This document shows positions 2,208 to 62,454 of a DNA stretch of 64,000 nucleotides, one piece after another. The position numbers and the translations under genes were made by a program. The stretch is from NCBI GenBank assembly GCA_026188615.1, contig GCA_026188615.1_4525.1, one strand, 5' to 3'. This DNA comes from a phage. Position 1 is the first letter of the stretch; every line of letters begins with the position of its first letter. The notes below the pieces were generated by a model. It did not search any database and was not told the DNA's origin. It was given only the letters and a program-made list of their open reading frames with translations.

Positions 2208-4293
2208 ATCCTTGGATAAATTTAAACGGAACTGATTCTAAATCCATTAAAGATGCTAACAATTTCAAACCTTTAGGTGCACTAGTTTTTTCTACAAATG
2301 AGGCAAAAGATACCGGCTCATCTGATTCGATTTCACCCGTCATAGCAACTACCTCGCCTGTTTCCATGAGAACATCACCATCGTAAATGACAGCTTCGTC
2401 CAACTGGTCCGAGGACATGACTTCAGCTTGAATAAATTTAAGGTTGGATTCTAAACCTGCACCAGTGTCAGATGACGCATCTGTAATTTTATTTATCTGC
2501 AAGAGAATGCCTCTAGGCAAAATAATTTCTTGCTCATTAGGGTGATTACTCAACTGTCCGGGATAAATCACGTTAACTTTATGAGCGCCATCGATAGCCC
2601 ATCCAACGTTAACACGGATTTGTTCTGGTGCATGCATAGCTGTTCTTACTTGGCTAGGAGAAATAGTAACACCTTCGTCATTATTATCAATGTTAAGCTC
2701 TTTGCGAACTTCTTCAGGAGCAAGTCCAAGGGCAACGTTCTCTTTAAACCCGCCGAAAATAATAGGAGCTAGTGAAGTGGAAACATAGTTTCTGAAGTAG
2801 AATACCTTATTTTTAACCATTGCTTCGTAAATAGGCATTCTGATAGACTGGGCTCTATACAACGTTAGTCCTTCAGGTAAACGGTCTCCATTTAAAAACG
2901 CCGAATCAAGACCATCAATAGCGCGTTTAACTTCATCTTCATCTGCAACATCATAAAAATCCGGTTTATAACGGCCTAACAACATATTATTGATATCGGT
3001 ATACGCAGAAGAGGCATATTCGCGAATAGCTCGTTTTTCAGCAACAGAGTATTGTTTAGGGTCCCGATTCATTGTTATATTAAAGGTGCCTCTAGCCGAT
3101 TCTCGTGCATAGGTATACATCACATTAGACAAGAACGCTGATTTACGTTGTTTCCAAGTTTTTTCAGATACTTCAGCTAAAACATCGTCGGCCAGTTGGA
3201 AATTATCACGTCTAAAATCTTCAAACCATTCGTCTTTAATAGAGTCCGCAATTTCGTTTGCAGCTTCAACAAAAGCAGCTAATGCTTTAACAGATGTTGT
3301 TTTTTCAGTTTTAATTTTCTTAGCAAACTTTTCTAAAGTTGGCTTAATAACACTACCATAAGAAACTTCATCAGCAAATCTAAAGGATTCATCAATACGA
3401 TTATAAATCTTATTTTCGATATCAGCAACTAAAGTGCCTTTTGCTGTGGATGATGCTTGAGCTAGTACGATTTCATATGCTTCAGGAAGTAATTCGGCTG
3501 TAGCCGGGCCACTAACTTCTTTAGCAGAATTTTCGTATTTCTGGAATAACTCACCTTCTTGGCGGTCAGCTTCTAAAGATTGACTTGCTGCAATAGCACG
3601 ACGAGAAATTTTAGTACGAGCAATAACAGGCTTATCTTTACGTTTTTCTTCTACAGCAGCAATAGAACCAGCGATAGCCGTTTCTTTGGTGACCTTTTCG
3701 CCGGTCTTTTTACTCACATAAACTTCGCCAACATCAGAATCTACTTTCGCGTACAACTCTGTGTTAATGTTAGGGATGCCTTTAATATCTTCAATGTTGG
3801 CATTTTTACGAACCATCATCACATAGGTGTGTTTACCTGTGAATTGATACATTGCCGACAATACTTTAAAACGACCGCCGGTTTTAGTAGAAACTAAACG
3901 AGCAAGAAGAGTTTGAAGCTGCTGTCCACGTCCTTTCAATTTCTTGGTAGGGAACCGGAACAGAACTGCATCCATACGAAGAGCTTTAACCCGTTCATAT
4001 ACTGTATTGAAAATAGTGTTGATTGCATCAATAGGAGCAGGACCAAGGCCATTTTTCAATTCAGCGAGATTACCCTTTTCAGACAGACTCATAATAACAA
4101 CATGAGCGTATTTGTCGCCAAGTTTAACTTGTTTTACAGCGTCGCCTTCGGAAAGGTAAGAGAATAAACGAACTACGATGTTTGTATCGATATCACCAAT
4201 TTTCCAGACTTGTGGAACTTTAGCTTTAGGGTTCAAATTGACGACAGGAAGACTGCCTTCAGATTCAAACACTTCATTTAATTGTTCAGACAT
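2206..4293 (-). CDS. alt: Alt ADP-ribosyltransferase (packaged internal head protein)
   Basis: 695 aa vs T4 Alt 682 aa; position between gene 54 and gene 30. Confidence 0.75.
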   Translation of the reverse strand: MSEQLNEVFESEGSLPVVNLNPKAKVPQVWKIGDIDTNIVVRLFSYLSEGDAVKQVKLGDKYAHVVIMSLSEKGNLAELKNGLGPAPIDAINTIFNTVYERVKALRMDAVLFRFPTKKLKGRGQQLQTLLARLVSTKTGGRFKVLSAMYQFTGKHTYVMMVRKNANIEDIKGIPNINTELYAKVDSDVGEVYVSKKTGEKVTKETAIAGSIAAVEEKRKDKPVIARTKISRRAIAASQSLEADRQEGELFQKYENSAKEVSGPATAELLPEAYEIVLAQASSTAKGTLVADIENKIYNRIDESFRFADEVSYGSVIKPTLEKFAKKIKTEKTTSVKALAAFVEAANEIADSIKDEWFEDFRRDNFQLADDVLAEVSEKTWKQRKSAFLSNVMYTYARESARGTFNITMNRDPKQYSVAEKRAIREYASSAYTDINNMLLGRYKPDFYDVADEDEVKRAIDGLDSAFLNGDRLPEGLTLYRAQSIRMPIYEAMVKNKVFYFRNYVSTSLAPIIFGGFKENVALGLAPEEVRKELNIDNNDEGVTISPSQVRTAMHAPEQIRVNVGWAIDGAHKVNVIYPGQLSNHPNEQEIILPRGILLQINKITDASSDTGAGLESNLKFIQAEVMSSDQLDEAVIYDGDVLMETGEVVAMTGEIESDEPVSFASFVEKTSAPKGLKLLASLMDLESVPFKFIQG

Positions 4294-4537: not shown

Positions 4538-6030
4538 TATAAACCTGTCTGGGACCACGGTCCAAATACGTCTTCAAATGAATCCGCTTCTGTTTTATCA
4601 AAACGGAACCCTTTAATAATTGGAAGGAAAATACCTACAGTACCTTCACGGCCTTTAGAATGAACCCAACCATTGCATTCACAATCAGCAATACGTCCAA
4701 TCAATTTACCTTCACGAGCTTCGGTCATTAATCGTTCACGGTCCAAATCATGACGCTCATCTAAAGGAATAAGAACCTTTACACCATCAACTGTTTTATG
4801 AGTTGTATCTTTAAACCCTGAACCACAATCAGTTGTAATACGACGACAACGTGATACGAGTTCGACACCACCTAATTTGTTAGGGTCTTTAGAGTGTTCA
4901 TAGTATCCTACAACTTCTAAAGCGATATCAATAACTTCTTTAAATTTAATTAGGTTCTTAGAGCGTTTGTTTTCCCAGTATGAATCACGGTTTTTAAGGA
5001 TAATACCTTCAAGACCTTGGTCAACATATTTTTTATAAACCACTTTAGCTTCGTCAAGATTACGAACTAACTGATTTTCAATTGGCTCAATTCGCTTAAA
5101 GCCTTCAGCCATATTTTCAAGAGCAGCAAAACGAACATCGTATTTCTGACCTTTAATTTTACCGTCAGAATAGACTTCATCTAAAGGAACATAGTCCCAG
5201 GCTTGAAGAACCATACCTTCAGCTTCTTTAGGAGAAATAGTCCCTTGAAGAGATTTATTTGCTAAACCGTTTGAAGTGCTACGGTCCGCAACTTGTACTT
5301 CTTCGGATTCTTCATTATCACCAAATAAGAACGACAGGTCATTTCCTGAGCTCACAGCCTTTTTAATATCAAATGAATGGTAAACTAATTCACCGTCGAT
5401 TAAAACCCCATTAGGGTGTCTTTCACGAGCTTCTTTAGTCATTTCCATTAGTTCATCCGCTAATAGAGTAAGACCATGATATTCGTTGCCGGCACGAGAA
5501 AAGAATTGAACACCATCATCGCGAACTTCAGCGAAACAACGAGCACCATCTGCTTTTAATTGGGCAAATGCAGGCCATTTAATATTTTTAGTAATCAATT
5601 TCTCGTCATATGCAGATGCTAACATCTGTGGTTGCAATTGAATAAGTCCAGGCCACACCTTATTCGCGATAGACACTGAAGCACCTACTTCAAGGTCGCG
5701 CATCATTACACGACGAAGGACTTCTACATCATCAGGTTTACCATCAGCGATATAACCCATGAGCTCTTTAATTGCAGCATTACCAGTGAGTTTACGAGTG
5801 GCTAATGTGAACTCAATAAAATCCAACATGTCATCTAATTCAAGAAGACCATACGCTTGAGACCTTTCACCTGGTCCTGGCCATTTCTTAATATAATACT
5901 GGATACCACGTGCATATGTTAAACGATACACACGTTCAAGTAATTTGTTGTCCTTATTTTTCTTAAGGATTTCCTGTTTTGTTTTAGTAGAACCGATCGC
6001 AGCTATTTGGTTTAAAATATCTAAAATCAT
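4537..6030 (-). CDS. 30: ATP-dependent DNA ligase gp30
   Basis: 497 aa; near-colinear with recalled T4 ligase (MIL.ILN..A.IGSTK, KADGARCFAEVR adenylation lysine motif, ECECNGW near C-term). Confidence 0.95.
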   Translation of the reverse strand: MILDILNQIAAIGSTKTKQEILKKNKDNKLLERVYRLTYARGIQYYIKKWPGPGERSQAYGLLELDDMLDFIEFTLATRKLTGNAAIKELMGYIADGKPDDVEVLRRVMMRDLEVGASVSIANKVWPGLIQLQPQMLASAYDEKLITKNIKWPAFAQLKADGARCFAEVRDDGVQFFSRAGNEYHGLTLLADELMEMTKEARERHPNGVLIDGELVYHSFDIKKAVSSGNDLSFLFGDNEESEEVQVADRSTSNGLANKSLQGTISPKEAEGMVLQAWDYVPLDEVYSDGKIKGQKYDVRFAALENMAEGFKRIEPIENQLVRNLDEAKVVYKKYVDQGLEGIILKNRDSYWENKRSKNLIKFKEVIDIALEVVGYYEHSKDPNKLGGVELVSRCRRITTDCGSGFKDTTHKTVDGVKVLIPLDERHDLDRERLMTEAREGKLIGRIADCECNGWVHSKGREGTVGIFLPIIKGFRFDKTEADSFEDVFGPWSQTGL

Positions 6031-6296
6031 TTGATGTCCTCGATTTTGGTTACGGTTCTATTATAAGCCACTTCATCTAGAAGCGATTTCAGCGTTTTCT
6101 GATAAGTTGTAATCCATTTACCGAGTCCTTCAACATAGTATTCTGAAATGTAGATGAACCCTTGTTCAACACACTCTTTAAATATTTCTGCGTCTTTTAC
6201 TGAACGAAACAATGGCCAGTCTCGAAAGAACATGTTAACGTGACCGTAGTCACGTGTGGTATTTTTGCCATCTGTAATATCATGAACTACAAACAT
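6027..6296 (-). CDS. hypothetical protein (30.1 position)
   Basis: 89-aa ORF overlapping ligase start by 4 nt; synteny. Confidence 0.5.
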   Translation of the reverse strand: MFVVHDITDGKNTTRDYGHVNMFFRDWPLFRSVKDAEIFKECVEQGFIYISEYYVEGLGKWITTYQKTLKSLLDEVAYNRTVTKIEDIK

Positions 6297-6305
6297 AATT
6301 AACCC

Positions 6306-7130
6306 TTAACAATTTATAGACCAAGTCCATTTAGACGAATCTAAAGGAAAGTTTTGAATCGTCCACCACGGCTGCATATCAGTTGGTCCTGGGGTTCGCC
6401 AGGTGTATGGAGTACGTGTTGTCGAGGGGCCACCAATTTGATTAGGCCATGCACCTGGACTTGTTGCACCAGATTCTTTAAGCAAATCCGCCAATCGTTT
6501 TAAAAGGTCTTCACGATCTGAATCTGAATTATTCTTAGGCAGAACCAAACGAGATTCAATATCATCCCACGTGTGTACACGTTGTGCAGTACGAGGAATG
6601 GCATCACGTTCACCACGAGCCAACCAATAAATCGGTACATTAAGAATTTCTGCCGCATGGTCACAATGATGAGCTAAATCGTCAACGTAACAAATTACGT
6701 TATATTTTGTTTTAGCTAGTTCGAATAATTGTTCCTTTGAAGAATCATGACCACACATCATTACTTCAGAGAAAGCGCCTGGGAACAAAGCATTCAAATT
6801 AAATTGTCTATTCAATCGAGCATCAATTGAATCACCTAGCGCCGTCACGGCTACAAAATTATAGTCTTCTTTTAGTTTATTGATAACTCGAAGAGCATCA
6901 GAATAAGGCGCTAAGTAACGAATAAAATCAGAGCTATTATATTTTTCTATTAATTGTTTACCAAGGTTATCGTCGGTATTGAACAGTTTACCAGGAGAAA
7001 TAAATTTTTCGTCCTGAATCATTTTTAAAATATGTTCTAATGGAAGGTTATATTTTTGGGCAAAATAAGGAAGTCCAGATTGCCAGCTTAAACATACACC
7101 ATCAATATCAGTCAAAATAGTAGGCTTCAT
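6306..7130 (-). CDS. HAD-superfamily hydrolase-like protein (30.2 position)
   Basis: N-terminal LTDIDGV (DxDG[TV] motif I) and CYVDD (motif IV-like) seen in translation; 274 aa. Confidence 0.55.
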   Translation of the reverse strand: MKPTILTDIDGVCLSWQSGLPYFAQKYNLPLEHILKMIQDEKFISPGKLFNTDDNLGKQLIEKYNSSDFIRYLAPYSDALRVINKLKEDYNFVAVTALGDSIDARLNRQFNLNALFPGAFSEVMMCGHDSSKEQLFELAKTKYNVICYVDDLAHHCDHAAEILNVPIYWLARGERDAIPRTAQRVHTWDDIESRLVLPKNNSDSDREDLLKRLADLLKESGATSPGAWPNQIGGPSTTRTPYTWRTPGPTDMQPWWTIQNFPLDSSKWTWSINC

Positions 7131-7594
7131 AAAGAGTCTCTTAATAGGTTTAACACGTCAATAAATTCATCTTCAGTTAGTATTGTATCATCTTTTGTTA
7201 GGTGGCTGGCCATGCTGTGCTTCAAAATTTTTCCTTTAGAGGCTTGTAAGGCATCACGAAACCCCTTGTTTTGGATCGCGGCTTCAAAATATGCATTTGT
7301 GTATAATTCTTTCCACGCTTCAGAGTATCTTGAAAATGGAACTCCTAACCAGAAGAGAGTCCCACGGTCCTGAGCTCTTGCATAAGACCTTCCAGCTTGC
7401 TGTGCAGCCAATCCAGACAACCCAAATATACGTCTTTGTTGTTCAACATTTTTCACCTTACATCCTTGGAGAAATCCTTCAAGACCTCCGAATTGAATAC
7501 CATCCATAACAAAAGGCCATTGAGCAAAGTTACTTAATGCACACGACGGCCATTTGAAATTACTTCTTATTTCTAATTCAGACATCTTTAACAC
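7127..7594 (-). CDS. NADAR/YbiA-like domain protein (30.3 position)
   Basis: LSNFAQWPFVMDGIQF matches recalled YbiA core FSNFAAWPIKVDGKTW; 155 aa. Confidence 0.6.
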   Translation of the reverse strand: MLKMSELEIRSNFKWPSCALSNFAQWPFVMDGIQFGGLEGFLQGCKVKNVEQQRRIFGLSGLAAQQAGRSYARAQDRGTLFWLGVPFSRYSEAWKELYTNAYFEAAIQNKGFRDALQASKGKILKHSMASHLTKDDTILTEDEFIDVLNLLRDSL

Positions 7595-7796
7595 TTATAA
7601 TTTCAACATCAGCCCAATGTCCGTATCCAGGTATACGGTCTTCGATAGATAAATTTCTGTCATTTTTAGGCATTTTAATTGACGTAACGTATGGTTCTAA
7701 ACGGTTTTCCGCGTAATATGGAAAAACGTCGGTTACACGATAAGTAACTTCAATCATTTCCGTACCAAACAATTTCTGGATTAATTTATTCAACAT
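7578..7796 (-). CDS. hypothetical small protein (30.x cluster)
   Basis: 72-aa ORF in tightly packed minus-strand cluster. Confidence 0.4.
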   Translation of the reverse strand: MLNKLIQKLFGTEMIEVTYRVTDVFPYYAENRLEPYVTSIKMPKNDRNLSIEDRIPGYGHWADVEIISVKDV

Positions 7797-7983
7797 GTTT
7801 CAACCCTTTAATAGGAGATAACTCTTTACCCATACGTATGTCAGAAGTCCCATCAACCCATTGAACAGCATACGCTTCATTGATAATTCCAGCGGCAGTT
7901 TTAAATTCGTTGAGAACTTTAAAAATCATCCCAGGGATTCCAACACCTTTTAATTGGACTGTTTGTGCTATTAAAAATTTCAT
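7786..7983 (-). CDS. hypothetical small protein (30.x cluster)
   Basis: 65-aa ORF, overlaps neighbours by a few nt as typical for T4 early clusters. Confidence 0.4.
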   Translation of the reverse strand: MKFLIAQTVQLKGVGIPGMIFKVLNEFKTAAGIINEAYAVQWVDGTSDIRMGKELSPIKGLKHVE

Positions 7984-8037
7984 ATTTTTCCACTTACTAA
8001 AGAAATCATTATACTCTAATCCGTCCTTGGATGTACA

Positions 8038-8682
8038 CTACTTAATGAAATTAATTTCTACCGGATGAACAACAGGTTGAGCAGTGATATATTGAGTAAT
8101 TGCTTTCATGACTAGAGCTTCAGAACCAGGATTTTTCTCAACGAATTCACGTGCTAGGTTATGAGCTTCGAGTTCACTCAATAAACCGGAACGCTGGCAT
8201 CCACGGTCTTGAGTACCCTGTTCAGATAAAAGGACTACTACATATTTTTCATCGTCGTAGGGCTTAGCCAGTTGAGCAAATGTTCCTTTACTTCCAAAAG
8301 GAGAGTTATGTCGCCACATCACGCCGTGAGGAGTTTCAACCTTCGTATATTCGTGCGGTCCATTTTTCTTAGTTTCTTGATGTGGAACTTCATAGACCTT
8401 AGGGTTAGGACATTCAATAAAATGCTCATCTAAATCGGTCGAGAATATTAAAGTAAAACAATTACTGAATTTACCAACACCGGCCTGATAAATTTTACCT
8501 TCAGAAGTTCTAATTTCACAAACCGAGCCGGCATCAGTAACTTCTAAAACTTCAAAAGGCTCGATAAGGTCATATGAGAACATGTTTTTAAGGCGTGGAG
8601 TAATATCCCCATTTTTAAAATTCATTTTATAAAAAGTATTAACTTTAAACATAATTTCCTCAATGAGAGCCGAAGCTCCCAA
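8038..8682 (-). CDS. hypothetical protein, 214 aa (30.x cluster)
   Basis: Long ORF in coding-dense minus-strand cluster; no recognisable motif. Confidence 0.5.
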   Translation of the reverse strand: MGASALIEEIMFKVNTFYKMNFKNGDITPRLKNMFSYDLIEPFEVLEVTDAGSVCEIRTSEGKIYQAGVGKFSNCFTLIFSTDLDEHFIECPNPKVYEVPHQETKKNGPHEYTKVETPHGVMWRHNSPFGSKGTFAQLAKPYDDEKYVVVLLSEQGTQDRGCQRSGLLSELEAHNLAREFVEKNPGSEALVMKAITQYITAQPVVHPVEINFIK

Positions 8683-8687
8683 TTAAT

Positions 8688-9053
8688 TTAGATATCAAAT
8701 TCGTTAAGAACTACATCAAAGATTGCTTCGAGATGTTCAGGTTTAGCTCGGTTGCTCAGGATATGACGAATCCAAGTTTTAACCAGAAGTTTACGATTAA
8801 CACCATTCCAGCAAGGATGAGTACCTAAATCACGCTGACGGAAATCATCATCTAATGCAATTTTAAAATTTGAACCTTCCATCGTGATTGAAACCGTGAT
8901 ACCATTTTCAAATCGCATATAAACGTAATTAGGAGTCATGCACTGTTCGATTTCACAAACTGTACCGTTTTCGTGTTTCCATAAGCAAATAACTTCAGAA
9001 GAACCAGCAATACCGTTAGAAACATATTTACGTTCGAAGTTGGTGTAGTTCAT
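8688..9053 (-). CDS. hypothetical protein, 121 aa (30.x cluster)
   Basis: ORF preceded by early promoter-like element near 9085..9122. Confidence 0.5.
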   Translation of the reverse strand: MNYTNFERKYVSNGIAGSSEVICLWKHENGTVCEIEQCMTPNYVYMRFENGITVSITMEGSNFKIALDDDFRQRDLGTHPCWNGVNRKLLVKTWIRHILSNRAKPEHLEAIFDVVLNEFDI

Positions 9054-9127
9054 TTTATTCTCCAGATGTTTAAGTTGTTTGTTGGTACAGGTCTATAATA
9101 ACATAACCTGTACCAAAGTAAACTGTT

Positions 9128-9496
9128 TTATGCAACTTTAATCCAATTGTCTAAATTTAAAACACCTTTGGCTTTCATTTTTTCGATCAGGTTATCTGCT
9201 GTAATGCGTCCATTTTGATACCATGTAACATCTTCAGAGTAACCAGTTTCTTCGTCAACATATGTTTCTGAACGAATTTTACCGGTAATAATAGTTTTTA
9301 ATTCATATGTGTCACCTGTGAAAAAGTTTGCTAACACAATTTTCCAAGAGAAATCATCTGAAGGACCTTCAGGGGTCATACAACCTACGAACTCAAATTG
9401 CTCTTTGTATAACATCCACTGGAATTCTTTAATTTCGATAGCTTTATAACCGTCGTGGTCTTTACATTTGATGTATGAGTTCAGATTGATTTTCAT
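9128..9496 (-). CDS. hypothetical protein, 122 aa (30.x cluster)
   Basis: ORF preceded by early promoter-like element near 9530..9575. Confidence 0.5.
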   Translation of the reverse strand: MKINLNSYIKCKDHDGYKAIEIKEFQWMLYKEQFEFVGCMTPEGPSDDFSWKIVLANFFTGDTYELKTIITGKIRSETYVDEETGYSEDVTWYQNGRITADNLIEKMKAKGVLNLDNWIKVA

Positions 9497-9604
9497 TTTG
9501 TTCTCCGGTTTGTTTTATCGATTAGGTGGTACAAGTCTATAGTAACACATCCTACAGGAGAGTAAACATCTTTTTTAAACTTTTTCTGCCCTAAACGCAC
9601 AAAA

Positions 9605-9622
9605 GGGAGACCGAAGTCTCCC
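9605..9622 (-). terminator. intrinsic terminator hairpin GGGAGAC-UUCG-GUCUCCC followed by U-run (minus-strand transcript)
   Basis: Perfect 7-bp stem with CGAA loop on plus strand; AAAA at 9601..9604. Confidence 0.6.
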
Positions 9623-9627
9623 TAAAA

Positions 9628-9807
9628 TTATGCAACAACCTTTCCAAAACGAGAAGCATCATCTCGAAGAACTGCACGTGCTCTGCGCATGATCTTCTCA
9701 ACTGTTTGATTAATACGAGAGTTCGACCCACGCTTGTATCCAGCGCGTTTAGAGGTACCATCAACTTTCTTTTCAACTGCTTTCTTTGCTTTAGCTTGTT
9801 TTGCCAT
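9628..9807 (-). CDS. small basic Lys/Arg-rich protein, 59 aa (30.9 position); not in supplied ORF track
   Basis: Hand-translated: MAKQAKAKKAVEKKVDGTSKRAGYKRGSNSRINQTVEKIMRRARAVLRDDASRFGKVVA, stop TAA at 9628..9630; ninth ORF between gene 30 and rIII. Confidence 0.45.
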   Translation of the reverse strand: MAKQAKAKKAVEKKVDGTSKRAGYKRGSNSRINQTVEKIMRRARAVLRDDASRFGKVVA

Positions 9808-10070
9808 TATAAATTCTCTTTAAATGAAAATGCAGGACTTATTGACATTGCCTGCGCAAGCCCTCAAGGGGAACATAGGTTTTGGATATTTAACGACAGG
9901 ATAACCATAAACCCGTCATCATACCAACCACGACTTAGACAGATAACCTTTTTCTGACGCGTGATAGTACAAAATACATTCAAGAGGTACACCGTAAAAC
10001 TGCCGGGGACTTAAAACTATAATGATTCGCAAATCATTAATCAGACAGTTCGACGGCTCCTCGATTTAAC

Positions 10071-10319
10071 TTACTTTAGGGTAATAACAAAATGACGTAC
10101 TGCTTTACGAGCTGCAGAAGCCAAAGGCTTAGCATATTTCAGTTCATCTTTTGCTTCCAGTTCAGAGGCCAAAGCTGCCTGGACCGGGTTCAGATGTTTG
10201 AAATATCGCAGGATTTCAAGAGCTTCGGCTTCAACATCGATAGATGCGCCATAGTTTTCGTGACCATTATTCCATGCGTTACGTTGCAGTTCAAGAGCGT
10301 GTTGTAATTGTTTAATCAT
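10071..10319 (-). CDS. rIII: rIII lysis-inhibition accessory protein
   Basis: 82 aa, same as T4 RIII; directly downstream of gene 31. Confidence 0.85.
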   Translation of the reverse strand: MIKQLQHALELQRNAWNNGHENYGASIDVEAEALEILRYFKHLNPVQAALASELEAKDELKYAKPLASAARKAVRHFVITLK

Positions 10320-10435
10320 TTTAAATTCTCAATTCGAGATAATATTTAGTAGCCACGTTCGTCTGAATTTCACCTTCTTTCGACAAGTCTCTCAGTTGTA
10401 GGCTACCGCTTAGAAGAGTGTTCTCTTCATATAGT

Positions 10436-10443
10436 TATTTATA
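10436..10443 (-). promoter_or_regulatory. T4 late promoter TATAAATA (minus strand) between gene 31 and rIII
   Basis: Exact TATTTATA on plus strand = TATAAATA on minus. Confidence 0.5.
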
Positions 10444-10776
10444 TCACTTATAAAGACACGGAATAGCTTTATAATGGCATGTTACGAATTTCTGTTTAAT
10501 TTCTTTAGGTTGTTTAAGTCCCAAAGCCACAAATGGATGTGGAACATTTCGAATTTGTCCAACTGGTAGTGGAGTCAAATCACCGACTTCAACAAAACCT
10601 TCAGGAACATCAGGACCTACAGAATGAACTACACATAGTTCAGGAACTTCACCTTGAACACGTTTACCAATCACAAGTCCTGATTCGGTAACTTCTTCAT
10701 CACCTGCTTGAGCGGGTTCAGAAACCAGAATGACATATTCACCAACAGCACGAATTGGGAGTTGTACTTCAGACAT
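10444..10776 (-). CDS. 31: gp31 co-chaperonin (GroES analogue)
   Basis: 110 aa; near-identical to recalled T4 gp31 ([34 protein letters not shown]...[15 protein letters not shown]). Confidence 0.95.
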
Positions 10777-61206: not shown

Positions 61207-61815
61207 TCAGTAACTGACAATAGACAGATTCCAGATTGTATAACTTCCATCTTGAATAATAGAATCTACACGCAGTGTAGTCCCTATAGGGAGCATAAAT
61301 TCACATTCGTCAGATATAAGTCTAGCATTAGACCGTCTTGTCGCTTCAGGGAAAGCTCCATTGAACTCACAAGATGGCGCAGCCAGAATCATGTTAAGCA
61401 TATGTTCACGGAAGTTGAAAGCAAACGGTGCATCTTTGATGCAGAACATATTAAATGTTCCATAAAAATTATACGAAGCAAAGTTACGTGCTACACTGAA
61501 CACTGGGCTGAAGCTCATTACTCTGTCAAATTTAATAATACTACCAATGCCTTTATCATCGAGTGTGGCCATAGTTTTCTTAGAGATTCCACGATACATT
61601 GTCTCAGGAACAGAAGACGTCCAATTTCTACGAACGATTGAACTTAACTCCTGTTGAATACAGTCTGGCTTGTTTTCCATACATTGCCAAAGGATGCTTT
61701 GTTCATTATCGTTGAATTGACTATCAATTTCGTACTGCAATACATCTTGATATTCGGGGTTTTGAGCACGACGAACCATTTCTTCAATTTCACACTCGTT
61801 ATACGGCATAAACAT
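61207..61815 (-). CDS. modB: ADP-ribosyltransferase ModB
   Basis: 202 aa; paralog of upstream ORF; R (YRG), S-x-S (SFS) and E-x-E (ECEFM) ART motifs. Confidence 0.7.
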   Translation of the reverse strand: MFMPYNECEIEEMVRRAQNPEYQDVLQYEIDSQFNDNEQSILWQCMENKPDCIQQELSSIVRRNWTSSVPETMYRGISKKTMATLDDKGIGSIIKFDRVMSFSPVFSVARNFASYNFYGTFNMFCIKDAPFAFNFREHMLNMILAAPSCEFNGAFPEATRRSNARLISDECEFMLPIGTTLRVDSIIQDGSYTIWNLSIVSY

Positions 61816-61872
61816 TTAGGTTTCTCCTGTGGTTGATAAAAGTATAGTATCATCGTCTGTAGAGTTTGTACA

Positions 61873-62454
61873 CTAAAAATTCAACATTTTCAAATGAATG
61901 ATTTTGTATAATCGAGATAAAGGGTCATATTCTAAGTCTTCAATTTCCACAATCTCAAATCTAGAGATACCTGAGACCATGTACTCTTGTTCAGATTCAA
62001 TCATATCTAGGACGTCAACACGCTTTTCTTCCATAACATGCTTAGGGTTCTTTCCGGCGAGTACAATGTTAACCATGTTTTGGTAGTAATCAAAAATGAA
62101 TGGAGCATTCCTGAGACTAAGAATAGTATACGTCTGATATTCCCAACTCCCAGAGAATTGACGAGCTGTACTGAAATCAGTTGTGAACGATGTTACTCGT
62201 CCAGGAGACCAATGGCATCCAACAGAAAGAAGTGAAAGACGTTCTACTTCTTCTGGAGTTACACCACGGTAGAGTTCTACTGGTACTGTAGAAGTCATAT
62301 GCTTACGAACAAGATGGTCTAATTCATAGTGGAAATCCGGGTCTTCCTTAGAATCGGTGCAAGCCCAGAGAATGTTTTGTTCTTGGCGGGTGAATTTGCT
62401 ATCAATCAGATTTGTTAGGTATTCACGTTCTTGAAGTTCAGATTGACATGTCAT
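61873..62454 (-). CDS. modA: ADP-ribosyltransferase ModA
   Basis: 193 aa; ART motifs YRG, TTDFSTA, EQEYMVS; first of tandem pair. Confidence 0.7.
   Translation of the reverse strand: MTCQSELQEREYLTNLIDSKFTRQEQNILWACTDSKEDPDFHYELDHLVRKHMTSTVPVELYRGVTPEEVERLSLLSVGCHWSPGRVTSFTTDFSTARQFSGSWEYQTYTILSLRNAPFIFDYYQNMVNIVLAGKNPKHVMEEKRVDVLDMIESEQEYMVSGISRFEIVEIEDLEYDPLSRLYKIIHLKMLNF

Follow-up and report, generated by a model that had tools for sequence, protein, structure and literature searches.

An AdfN-type gene 30.3 allele in an RB69-like T-even phage: a phage NADAR protein predicted to counteract DarTG1

The stretch of DNA analysed here, called the window throughout, comprises 64,000 nucleotides of a phage genome (GenBank assembly GCA_026188615.1, contig GCA_026188615.1_4525.1). 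At positions 7127-7585 its minus strand carries a gene located between the counterparts of T4 genes 30.2 and 30.4, which is the position of gene 30.3 in T4 and lies in the gene 30 early cluster, as stated in the original prediction made from the letters alone. The product of T4 gene 30.3 (gp30.3) has been renamed AdfN (gene adfN), for anti-DarT factor NADAR, by Johannesman et al. (bioRxiv 2024; Nat Commun 2025; PMC11257639). The feature is already known: AdfN is a phage NADAR and an orphan antitoxin against DarTG1. The elements of the locus are listed below, with ORF standing for open reading frame.

7127-7585, minus strand: adfN (gene 30.3) coding sequence, 152 codons plus TGA stop; matches PF08010 and was modelled with AlphaFold2
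7586-7594, minus strand: three additional codons (GTG-L-K) that open the maximal ORF, inside the 3' end of gene 30.4 and probably untranslated
7578-7585, minus strand: overlap of 8 nucleotides between the end of gene 30.4 and the start of adfN, from the ORF coordinates 7578-7796 and 7127-7585
7127-7130, minus strand: ATGA overlap of the adfN TGA stop with the ATG start of gene 30.2, from the ORF coordinates 6306-7130 and 7127-7594 and the sequence
7526-7546, minus strand: N-terminal block P13..A16-L17-S18-N19-F20 ('SNF' motif), aligned to FSNFA of YbiA (2b3w)
7457-7480, minus strand: catalytic segment E36-G-F-L-Q-G-C-K43, aligned to SEHYFQAQK of YbiA
7217-7219, minus strand: His123, invariant, in the last beta-strand (residues 120-123; strand from the model)
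7130-7174, minus strand: C-terminal helix, residues 138-152 (helix 138-151 in the model), lost in the RB69 allele
8268-8681 of L003: RB69 adfN locus, encoding a shortened gp30.3

The maximal ORF on the minus strand extends from a GTG at 7594 to the stop at 7127 and corresponds to 155 amino acids. The original prediction had taken this entire frame; the gene is real, but its start is moved to 7585. The ATG at this position is almost certainly where translation begins, giving a protein of 152 amino acids that begins with MSELEIRSN. Annotations of T4 (NP_049816), RB69 and phage mogra begin the gene at the corresponding ATG, and the cloned T4 expression construct begins at the same codon (Johannesman et al., PMC11257639). 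The GTG was rejected as a start because it is not conserved in T4, where the codon is GCA. Because of the PF08010 match and the homologues in 1511 phage records described below, the ORF is, as judged from sequence comparison, not a chance reading frame. The gene and its neighbours 30.2 and 30.4 are tightly packed.

The protein matches the Pfam family Phage_30_3 (PF08010) with a score of 232 bits (cut-off 36; E = 2e-69), covering profile positions 1-138 of 138. It is 96% identical in amino acid sequence to T4 gp30.3 across all 152 residues, the six differences from the T4 protein being K11R, E89P, I120V, M125I, H128G and D139A. The mogra protein is 100% identical, and the truncated gp30.3 of RB69 shows 97% identity over the shared 137 residues. 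The ratio of nonsynonymous to synonymous substitution rates (dN/dS) relative to T4 is 0.05, which indicates that adfN is under purifying selection. Searches with tblastn revealed homologues, nearly all of full length, in 1511 phage records. These fall into a group with at least 80% identity, composed of T-even phages of E. coli, Shigella and Yersinia, and a second group with 30-46% identity that occurs in phages of Klebsiella, Aeromonas, Acinetobacter, Vibrio, Rhizobium and Ralstonia. In nearly all of these records the label is 'hypothetical protein', and the single match in PHROGs, phrog_652, is described as 'unknown function'. The gene can now be annotated as AdfN, an anti-DarTG1 factor that acts as a DNA guanine ADP-ribosylglycohydrolase.

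Versions of gp30.3 shortened to 86-126 amino acids are present in several deposited phage genomes and metagenome contigs (P0004-P0006, P0008, P0014, P0017 and P0049), and some of the shortened homologues are fused to domains of neighbouring genes (PF11097, PF06019 and PF06919). They may reflect repeated natural disruption of adfN, or sequencing or annotation artefacts.

The AlphaFold2 model of the protein (predicted local distance difference test score, pLDDT, 92.8; predicted template modelling score, pTM, 0.88) has the YbiA fold, with a helical core and two small flanking sheets. A Foldseek comparison with the PDB gave as the first three matches the NADAR chains 2b3w (E. coli YbiA), 8bau (Phytophthora nicotianae NADAR with ADP-ribose) and 8bat (G. 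lovleyi NADAR); the latter is a DarG1-type protein encoded beside DarT1. In an alignment of 60 full-length members of the family, sharing 35-88% identity, 23 sequences match PF08719 (NADAR/DUF1768), with a best E-value of 1.5e-7, and the profile derived from the alignment matches E. coli YbiA (2b3w) with E = 0.009. In this match, the profile segment LSNFa..F..DG....s.EGFLQslKf is aligned to FSNFAAWPIKVDGKTWPTSEHYFQAQKF of YbiA, the same motif alignment as had been proposed from the letters. The two sequence blocks quoted at that time, LSNFAQWPFVMDG (residues 17-29 counted from the ATG) and GLEGFLQGCKV (residues 34-44), are both found in the ORF. Among 82 database homologues, one (P0064) carries PF08010 as well as PF08719, and three have been named 'YbiA (DUF1768 family)' by JGI. 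On its modelled fold, the family profile and these transitive matches, the window protein is classified as a NADAR; the NADAR/YbiA-like call of the original prediction stands, and the structure prediction that it had suggested gave the NADAR fold.

Residues that are invariant in all 60 aligned sequences include P13, A16-L17-S18-N19-F20, E36-G37-F38, Q40, K43 and H123. E36 and K43 align to the Glu and Lys of SEHYFQAQK in YbiA, which gives the Glu-x6-Lys pattern, and they have the same spacing as E43 and K50 of the P. nicotianae NADAR and E88 and K95 of the E. coli C7 NADAR. In the P. nicotianae enzyme, E43 contacts the distal ribose of ADP-ribose and K50 the diphosphate, and in T4 AdfN the mutations E36A and K43A abolish rescue (PMC11257639). 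The NADAR superfamily is divided by the residue found in the last beta-strand, which is Glu in the YbiA type, Asp in the DarG1/BC4488 type and His in phage NADARs. In the window protein the charged residue at this position is the invariant H123, located in a strand formed by residues 120-123 of the model, and this combination of alignment and modelled strand assigns the protein to the phage NADAR subfamily. The Glu of the YbiA subfamily is replaced by this His, and the features of the DarG1/BC4488 type are also missing, since there is a His instead of Asp, the protein consists of the 152-residue core alone, and the neighbouring genes are 30.2 (HAD-like) and 30.4, neither of which encodes an ADP-ribosyltransferase.

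Among known systems, T4 AdfN is closest, with the same 152 residues, the same neighbours 30.2 and 30.4, the residues E36, K43 and H123, and the C-terminal helix. The six substitutions between the two proteins are conservative or of a surface type, and T4 is a Tequatrovirus whereas the window belongs to a Mosigvirus-like genome. The DarG1 antitoxins of the BC4488 type, including the G. lovleyi (8bat) and E. coli C7 NADARs, are larger proteins of around 190-220 amino acids with an N-terminal extension that the window protein lacks; they have the last-strand Asp and are encoded next to a DarT1 gene, whereas there is no DarT1 gene beside adfN. E. coli YbiA (2b3w; PF08719) shares 20% identity with the window protein and differs by the Glu in the last strand; its housekeeping role is linked to riboflavin intermediates, and it gives no in vivo protection against DarT1 (PMC11125620). 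The P. nicotianae NADAR (8bau), with 18% identity, is a eukaryotic orphan NADAR that has Glu125 where the phage protein has His123.

The function of AdfN has been established for T-even phages. In crosses of RB69 with T2 and T4, gene 30.3 was identified as the locus that makes T-even phages resistant to DarTG1 (PMC11257639). The gene is necessary, as deletion mutants of T4 and T2 lose about 4 logs on DarTG1, and it is sufficient, as ectopic T4 AdfN rescues RB69; the purified protein strips ADP-ribose from DarT1-modified DNA, and AdfN is ineffective against DarTG2 (PMC11257639). An independent study showed that T4 gp30.3 hydrolyses guanosine-linked ADP-ribose but not thymidine-linked ADP-ribose (Schuller et al., Toxins 2024, PMC11125620), and a 2026 paper includes phage NADAR among the enzymes reversing ADP-ribosylation of G, whereas it is absent from the list of those reversing ADP-ribosylation of C. 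In a transposon screen, insertions in 30.3/adfN were lost only on DarTG1 hosts (bioRxiv 10.1101/2025.11.20.689424), and the gene is dispensable on K-12 (PMC11257639; bioRxiv 10.1101/2025.11.20.689424). The idea of a candidate ADP-ribose-processing counter-defence enzyme, as put forward in the original prediction, fits what has been published on the 96%-identical T4 protein (PMC11257639, PMC11125620, bioRxiv 10.1101/2025.11.20.689424).

We conclude with high confidence that the gene in the window is adfN and that it encodes a single-domain enzyme of 152 amino acids from the phage branch of the NADARs, which would reverse the guanine ADP-ribosylation of phage DNA by DarT1. In the mechanism proposed here, adfN would be expressed from the gene 30 early cluster. 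The host DarT1, the ADP-ribosyltransferase of the DarTG1 toxin-antitoxin system, would add ADP-ribose to N2 of guanine in replicating phage DNA and block replication. AdfN would then cut the N-glycosidic bond and restore the unmodified guanine, whichever transferase had made the adduct, so that phage DNA replication could continue. The protein would in effect act as an orphan antitoxin carried by the phage. In its active site, Glu36 is expected to position the distal ribose and Lys43 to hold the diphosphate, whereas His123 may substitute for the Glu or Asp that other NADARs have in the last strand. The 96% identity suggests that the window allele acts like T4 AdfN.

Several points weigh against this interpretation. 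When the window protein itself was compared with Pfam at E <= 1, PF08010 was the only family found and PF08719 (NADAR/DUF1768) gave no match; NCBIfam gave no match either, nor did a phmmer search against PDB chains. Membership of the NADAR superfamily therefore rests on fold, family profile and transitive matches. A profile search against NADAR/DUF1768, which the original prediction had proposed as a check, is thus negative for the single protein and positive at the level of the family, and treating the lack of a NADAR-family hit as a refutation was too strict: a direct match is absent, yet fold and profile place the protein in NADAR. Furthermore, T4 AdfN fails to rescue uninfected E. coli from DarT1 and cannot replace DarG1 as antitoxin in such cells (PMC11257639, PMC11125620). 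In vivo, T4 AdfN may prefer DNA containing hydroxymethyl-cytosine or need a cofactor; the former has been proposed to explain its poor function outside T-even infection. Gene identity, fold, residue conservation and intactness of the allele were established in this analysis, whereas the data on activity and counter-defence are for AdfN of T4 and T2 and are extended to the window allele by analogy. The role of H123 in catalysis is also putative.

ADP-ribosyltransferases of the phage itself have to be considered as well. The original prediction had pointed to genes of the Alt, ModA and ModB type, and these are indeed present.

2209-4287, minus strand: Alt homologue, 43% identity to T4 Alt
about 61216-62397, minus strand: two ModA/ModB-like ORFs, 30-38% identity to T4 ModA and ModB

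With Alt encoded 3 kb away and the two ModA/ModB-like genes in the same window, AdfN might reverse or trim the products of these enzymes (protein ADP-ribosylation, or RNAylation by ModB) rather than those of a host toxin. This is very unlikely, since every NADAR that has been tested acts on ADP-ribose linked to a base in nucleic acids (guanine, and for some also cytosine), and the phenotype of the T4 adfN deletion is clean and specific for DarTG1, with the gene being dispensable on K-12. Beyond the genomic co-occurrence nothing connects AdfN to Alt, ModA or ModB, and no activity on protein-linked ADP-ribose was found in the literature retrieved. The target established by experiment is DNA in which DarT1 has ADP-ribosylated guanine, and the tie drawn in the original prediction to the phage's own transferases is not retained.

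A further possibility, to which we give even less credit, is that the window allele has lost some or all of its catalytic activity, owing either to the change from His to Gly after the catalytic Glu (SEH in YbiA versus LEG in the window protein) or to the six differences from T4. The original prediction had doubted activity because of this substitution. The doubt is unfounded because the active T4 enzyme has the same Gly, as does every family member: GLEGFLQGCKV, including LEGFLQGCK, is identical in T4 AdfN and G37 is invariant in the 60 aligned sequences. The six substitutions are located away from E36, K43 and H123. Natural null alleles do exist, as is seen in RB69, and the databases contain the truncated homologues mentioned above. 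RB69 is the one T-even phage that is sensitive to DarTG1, and this sensitivity correlates with the truncation of its gp30.3 (PMC11257639). Its genus-level background is the same as that of the window, but its adfN has an extra T after nucleotide 411, which produces a stop in ACT-TGA, so that the last 15 residues, the C-terminal helix, are missing. Alignment of the DNA sequences showed that the insertion is restricted to RB69, with the window and T4 lacking it. The window allele encodes all 152 amino acids with no frameshift, its C-terminal helix is present in the model, and the low dN/dS points to strong purifying selection. It is intact and presumably functional. Since the protein is full length and all key residues are intact, the source phage is predicted to resist DarTG1, unlike RB69. 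Such predicted resistance helps the choice of phages for hosts that carry DarTG1.

The least likely of these alternatives, that the protein is a YbiA-like housekeeping N-glycosidase destroying reactive intermediates of the riboflavin pathway or other nucleotide-like metabolites, draws on YbiA being the nearest sequence-level match among solved structures and on the riboflavin-intermediate activity reported for YbiA-type NADARs, but it is very improbable because the last-strand Glu that defines this subfamily is a His in the window protein, the published tree sets the AdfN clade beside DarG1-type NADARs and not beside YbiA (PMC11257639), and the T4 phenotype is specific for DarTG1.

While a phage NADAR directed against DarT1 adds nothing new to NADAR or DarTG biology, the apparently recent exchange of adfN between T-even genera is a mildly new point. 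For 49 T4 genes a counterpart could be located in the window, and each pair was compared. In 42 of the 49, core genes included, synonymous divergence (pS) is saturated at 0.56-0.95, and for most of the 49 it lies at 0.6-0.8. Examples are nrdA (87% amino acid identity, pS 0.70), gp52 (89%, pS 0.71), gp32 (pS 0.59) and gp48 and gp54 (pS 0.66 and 0.80). For adfN, nucleotide identity to T4 is 89%, with pS 0.42 and dS 0.62, and the immediate neighbours 30.2 and 30.4 each have a pS of 0.69. A sliding-window nucleotide comparison revealed an island of 82-95% identity to T4 from about 7000 to about 7620; its edge is sharp at the start of adfN, and a tail covers the first 130 or so nucleotides of gene 30.2. 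Similarly low pS values were found for 30.9, frd, 31, frd.1, rIII and 30.7.

An overlapping ORF of 75 amino acids, 30.3', is found within T4 gene 30.3 and was considered as a cause of the low synonymous divergence.

7222-7449, minus strand: frame within adfN corresponding to T4 30.3', with a 34-amino-acid ORF left at 7345-7449

The frame stops at codon 35 in the window and 30.3' therefore cannot explain the constraint; it is probably not a real gene, not being conserved as coding sequence.

The pattern of divergence suggests mosaic exchange as the simplest reading of the low-divergence genes. For adfN we tentatively propose, with doubt slightly prevailing, that the gene circulates among T-even genera as a recombination cassette, and that an exchange or sweep between Tequatrovirus and Mosigvirus took place long after their split. 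The gene 30.3 segment recombines easily in laboratory crosses, which is consistent with exchange (PMC11257639), and a term search of the AdfN preprint found no mention of low divergence or natural exchange of adfN (PMC11257639). If true, the exchange would correspond in nature to the crosses of RB69 with T2 and T4 that repaired the broken adfN of RB69 in the laboratory.

The background in which the gene occurs is evident from the 2.1 kb around adfN, where identity to phages vB_EcoM_KAW3E185, JK36, APCEc01, mogra and others is 99.3-99.8%. The taxonomy of mogra places it in Mosigvirus, the genus of RB69, and by these nucleotide matches the source genome is that of an RB69-like (Mosigvirus-like) T-even phage rather than a Tequatrovirus. 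The gene order is T4-like: alt, alt.1, 30 (DNA ligase), 30.1, 30.2, 30.3, 30.4, 30.5, ..., 30.7, 30.8, 30.9, rIII and 31. The T4 genes 30, 30.1, 30.2, 30.4 and 30.5 map colinearly around 7130-7585 in tblastn searches, and annotated relatives share this order. No match to adfA (T4 61.2), the other anti-DarT1 factor, was found within the 64-kb window; a T4-like order would put adfA outside it. Further features of the region are as follows.

6306-7130, minus strand: gene 30.2, 274 amino acids, directly downstream of adfN with an overlapping start
8008-8037, minus strand: sigma-70-like site TGTACA, 18-nucleotide spacer, TATAAT (10 of 12 matches), in the gap between the 204-amino-acid ORF and 30.5
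8041-8652, minus strand: ORF of 204 amino acids in the T4 30.6 slot, between 30.5 and 30.7, with no Pfam domain

Both ModA/ModB-like ORFs are closer to ModB than to ModA, and divergence from T4 is far greater for the phage's own ADP-ribosyltransferases than for AdfN, which removes ADP-ribose. Gene 30.2, translationally linked to adfN, gives at its N-terminus a weak, sub-threshold HAD-like hydrolase signal (Pfam HAD_2, E = 0.014), and the record of one relative labels it as HAD-like hydrolase. Its last 90 or so residues are very diverged from T4 (35-55% nucleotide identity).

A scan of 6000-10500 for promoters and terminators gave no excess over shuffled sequence (17 versus 14.4 +/- 3.6, and 2 versus 2.2) and therefore says nothing reliable on transcription. 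The sigma-70-like site is located in an intergenic gap of 55 nucleotides upstream of 30.5-30.4-adfN and may serve the cluster as an early promoter, with the site scan overall being at the level of shuffled sequence.

T4 gene 30.6 has no match anywhere in the window. The ORF of 204 amino acids that occupies its place has an end-to-end match to phrog_17531 (unknown function) and weak matches to phrog_8920 and phrog_622; the 30.6 position looks like a variable accessory slot of the early cluster.
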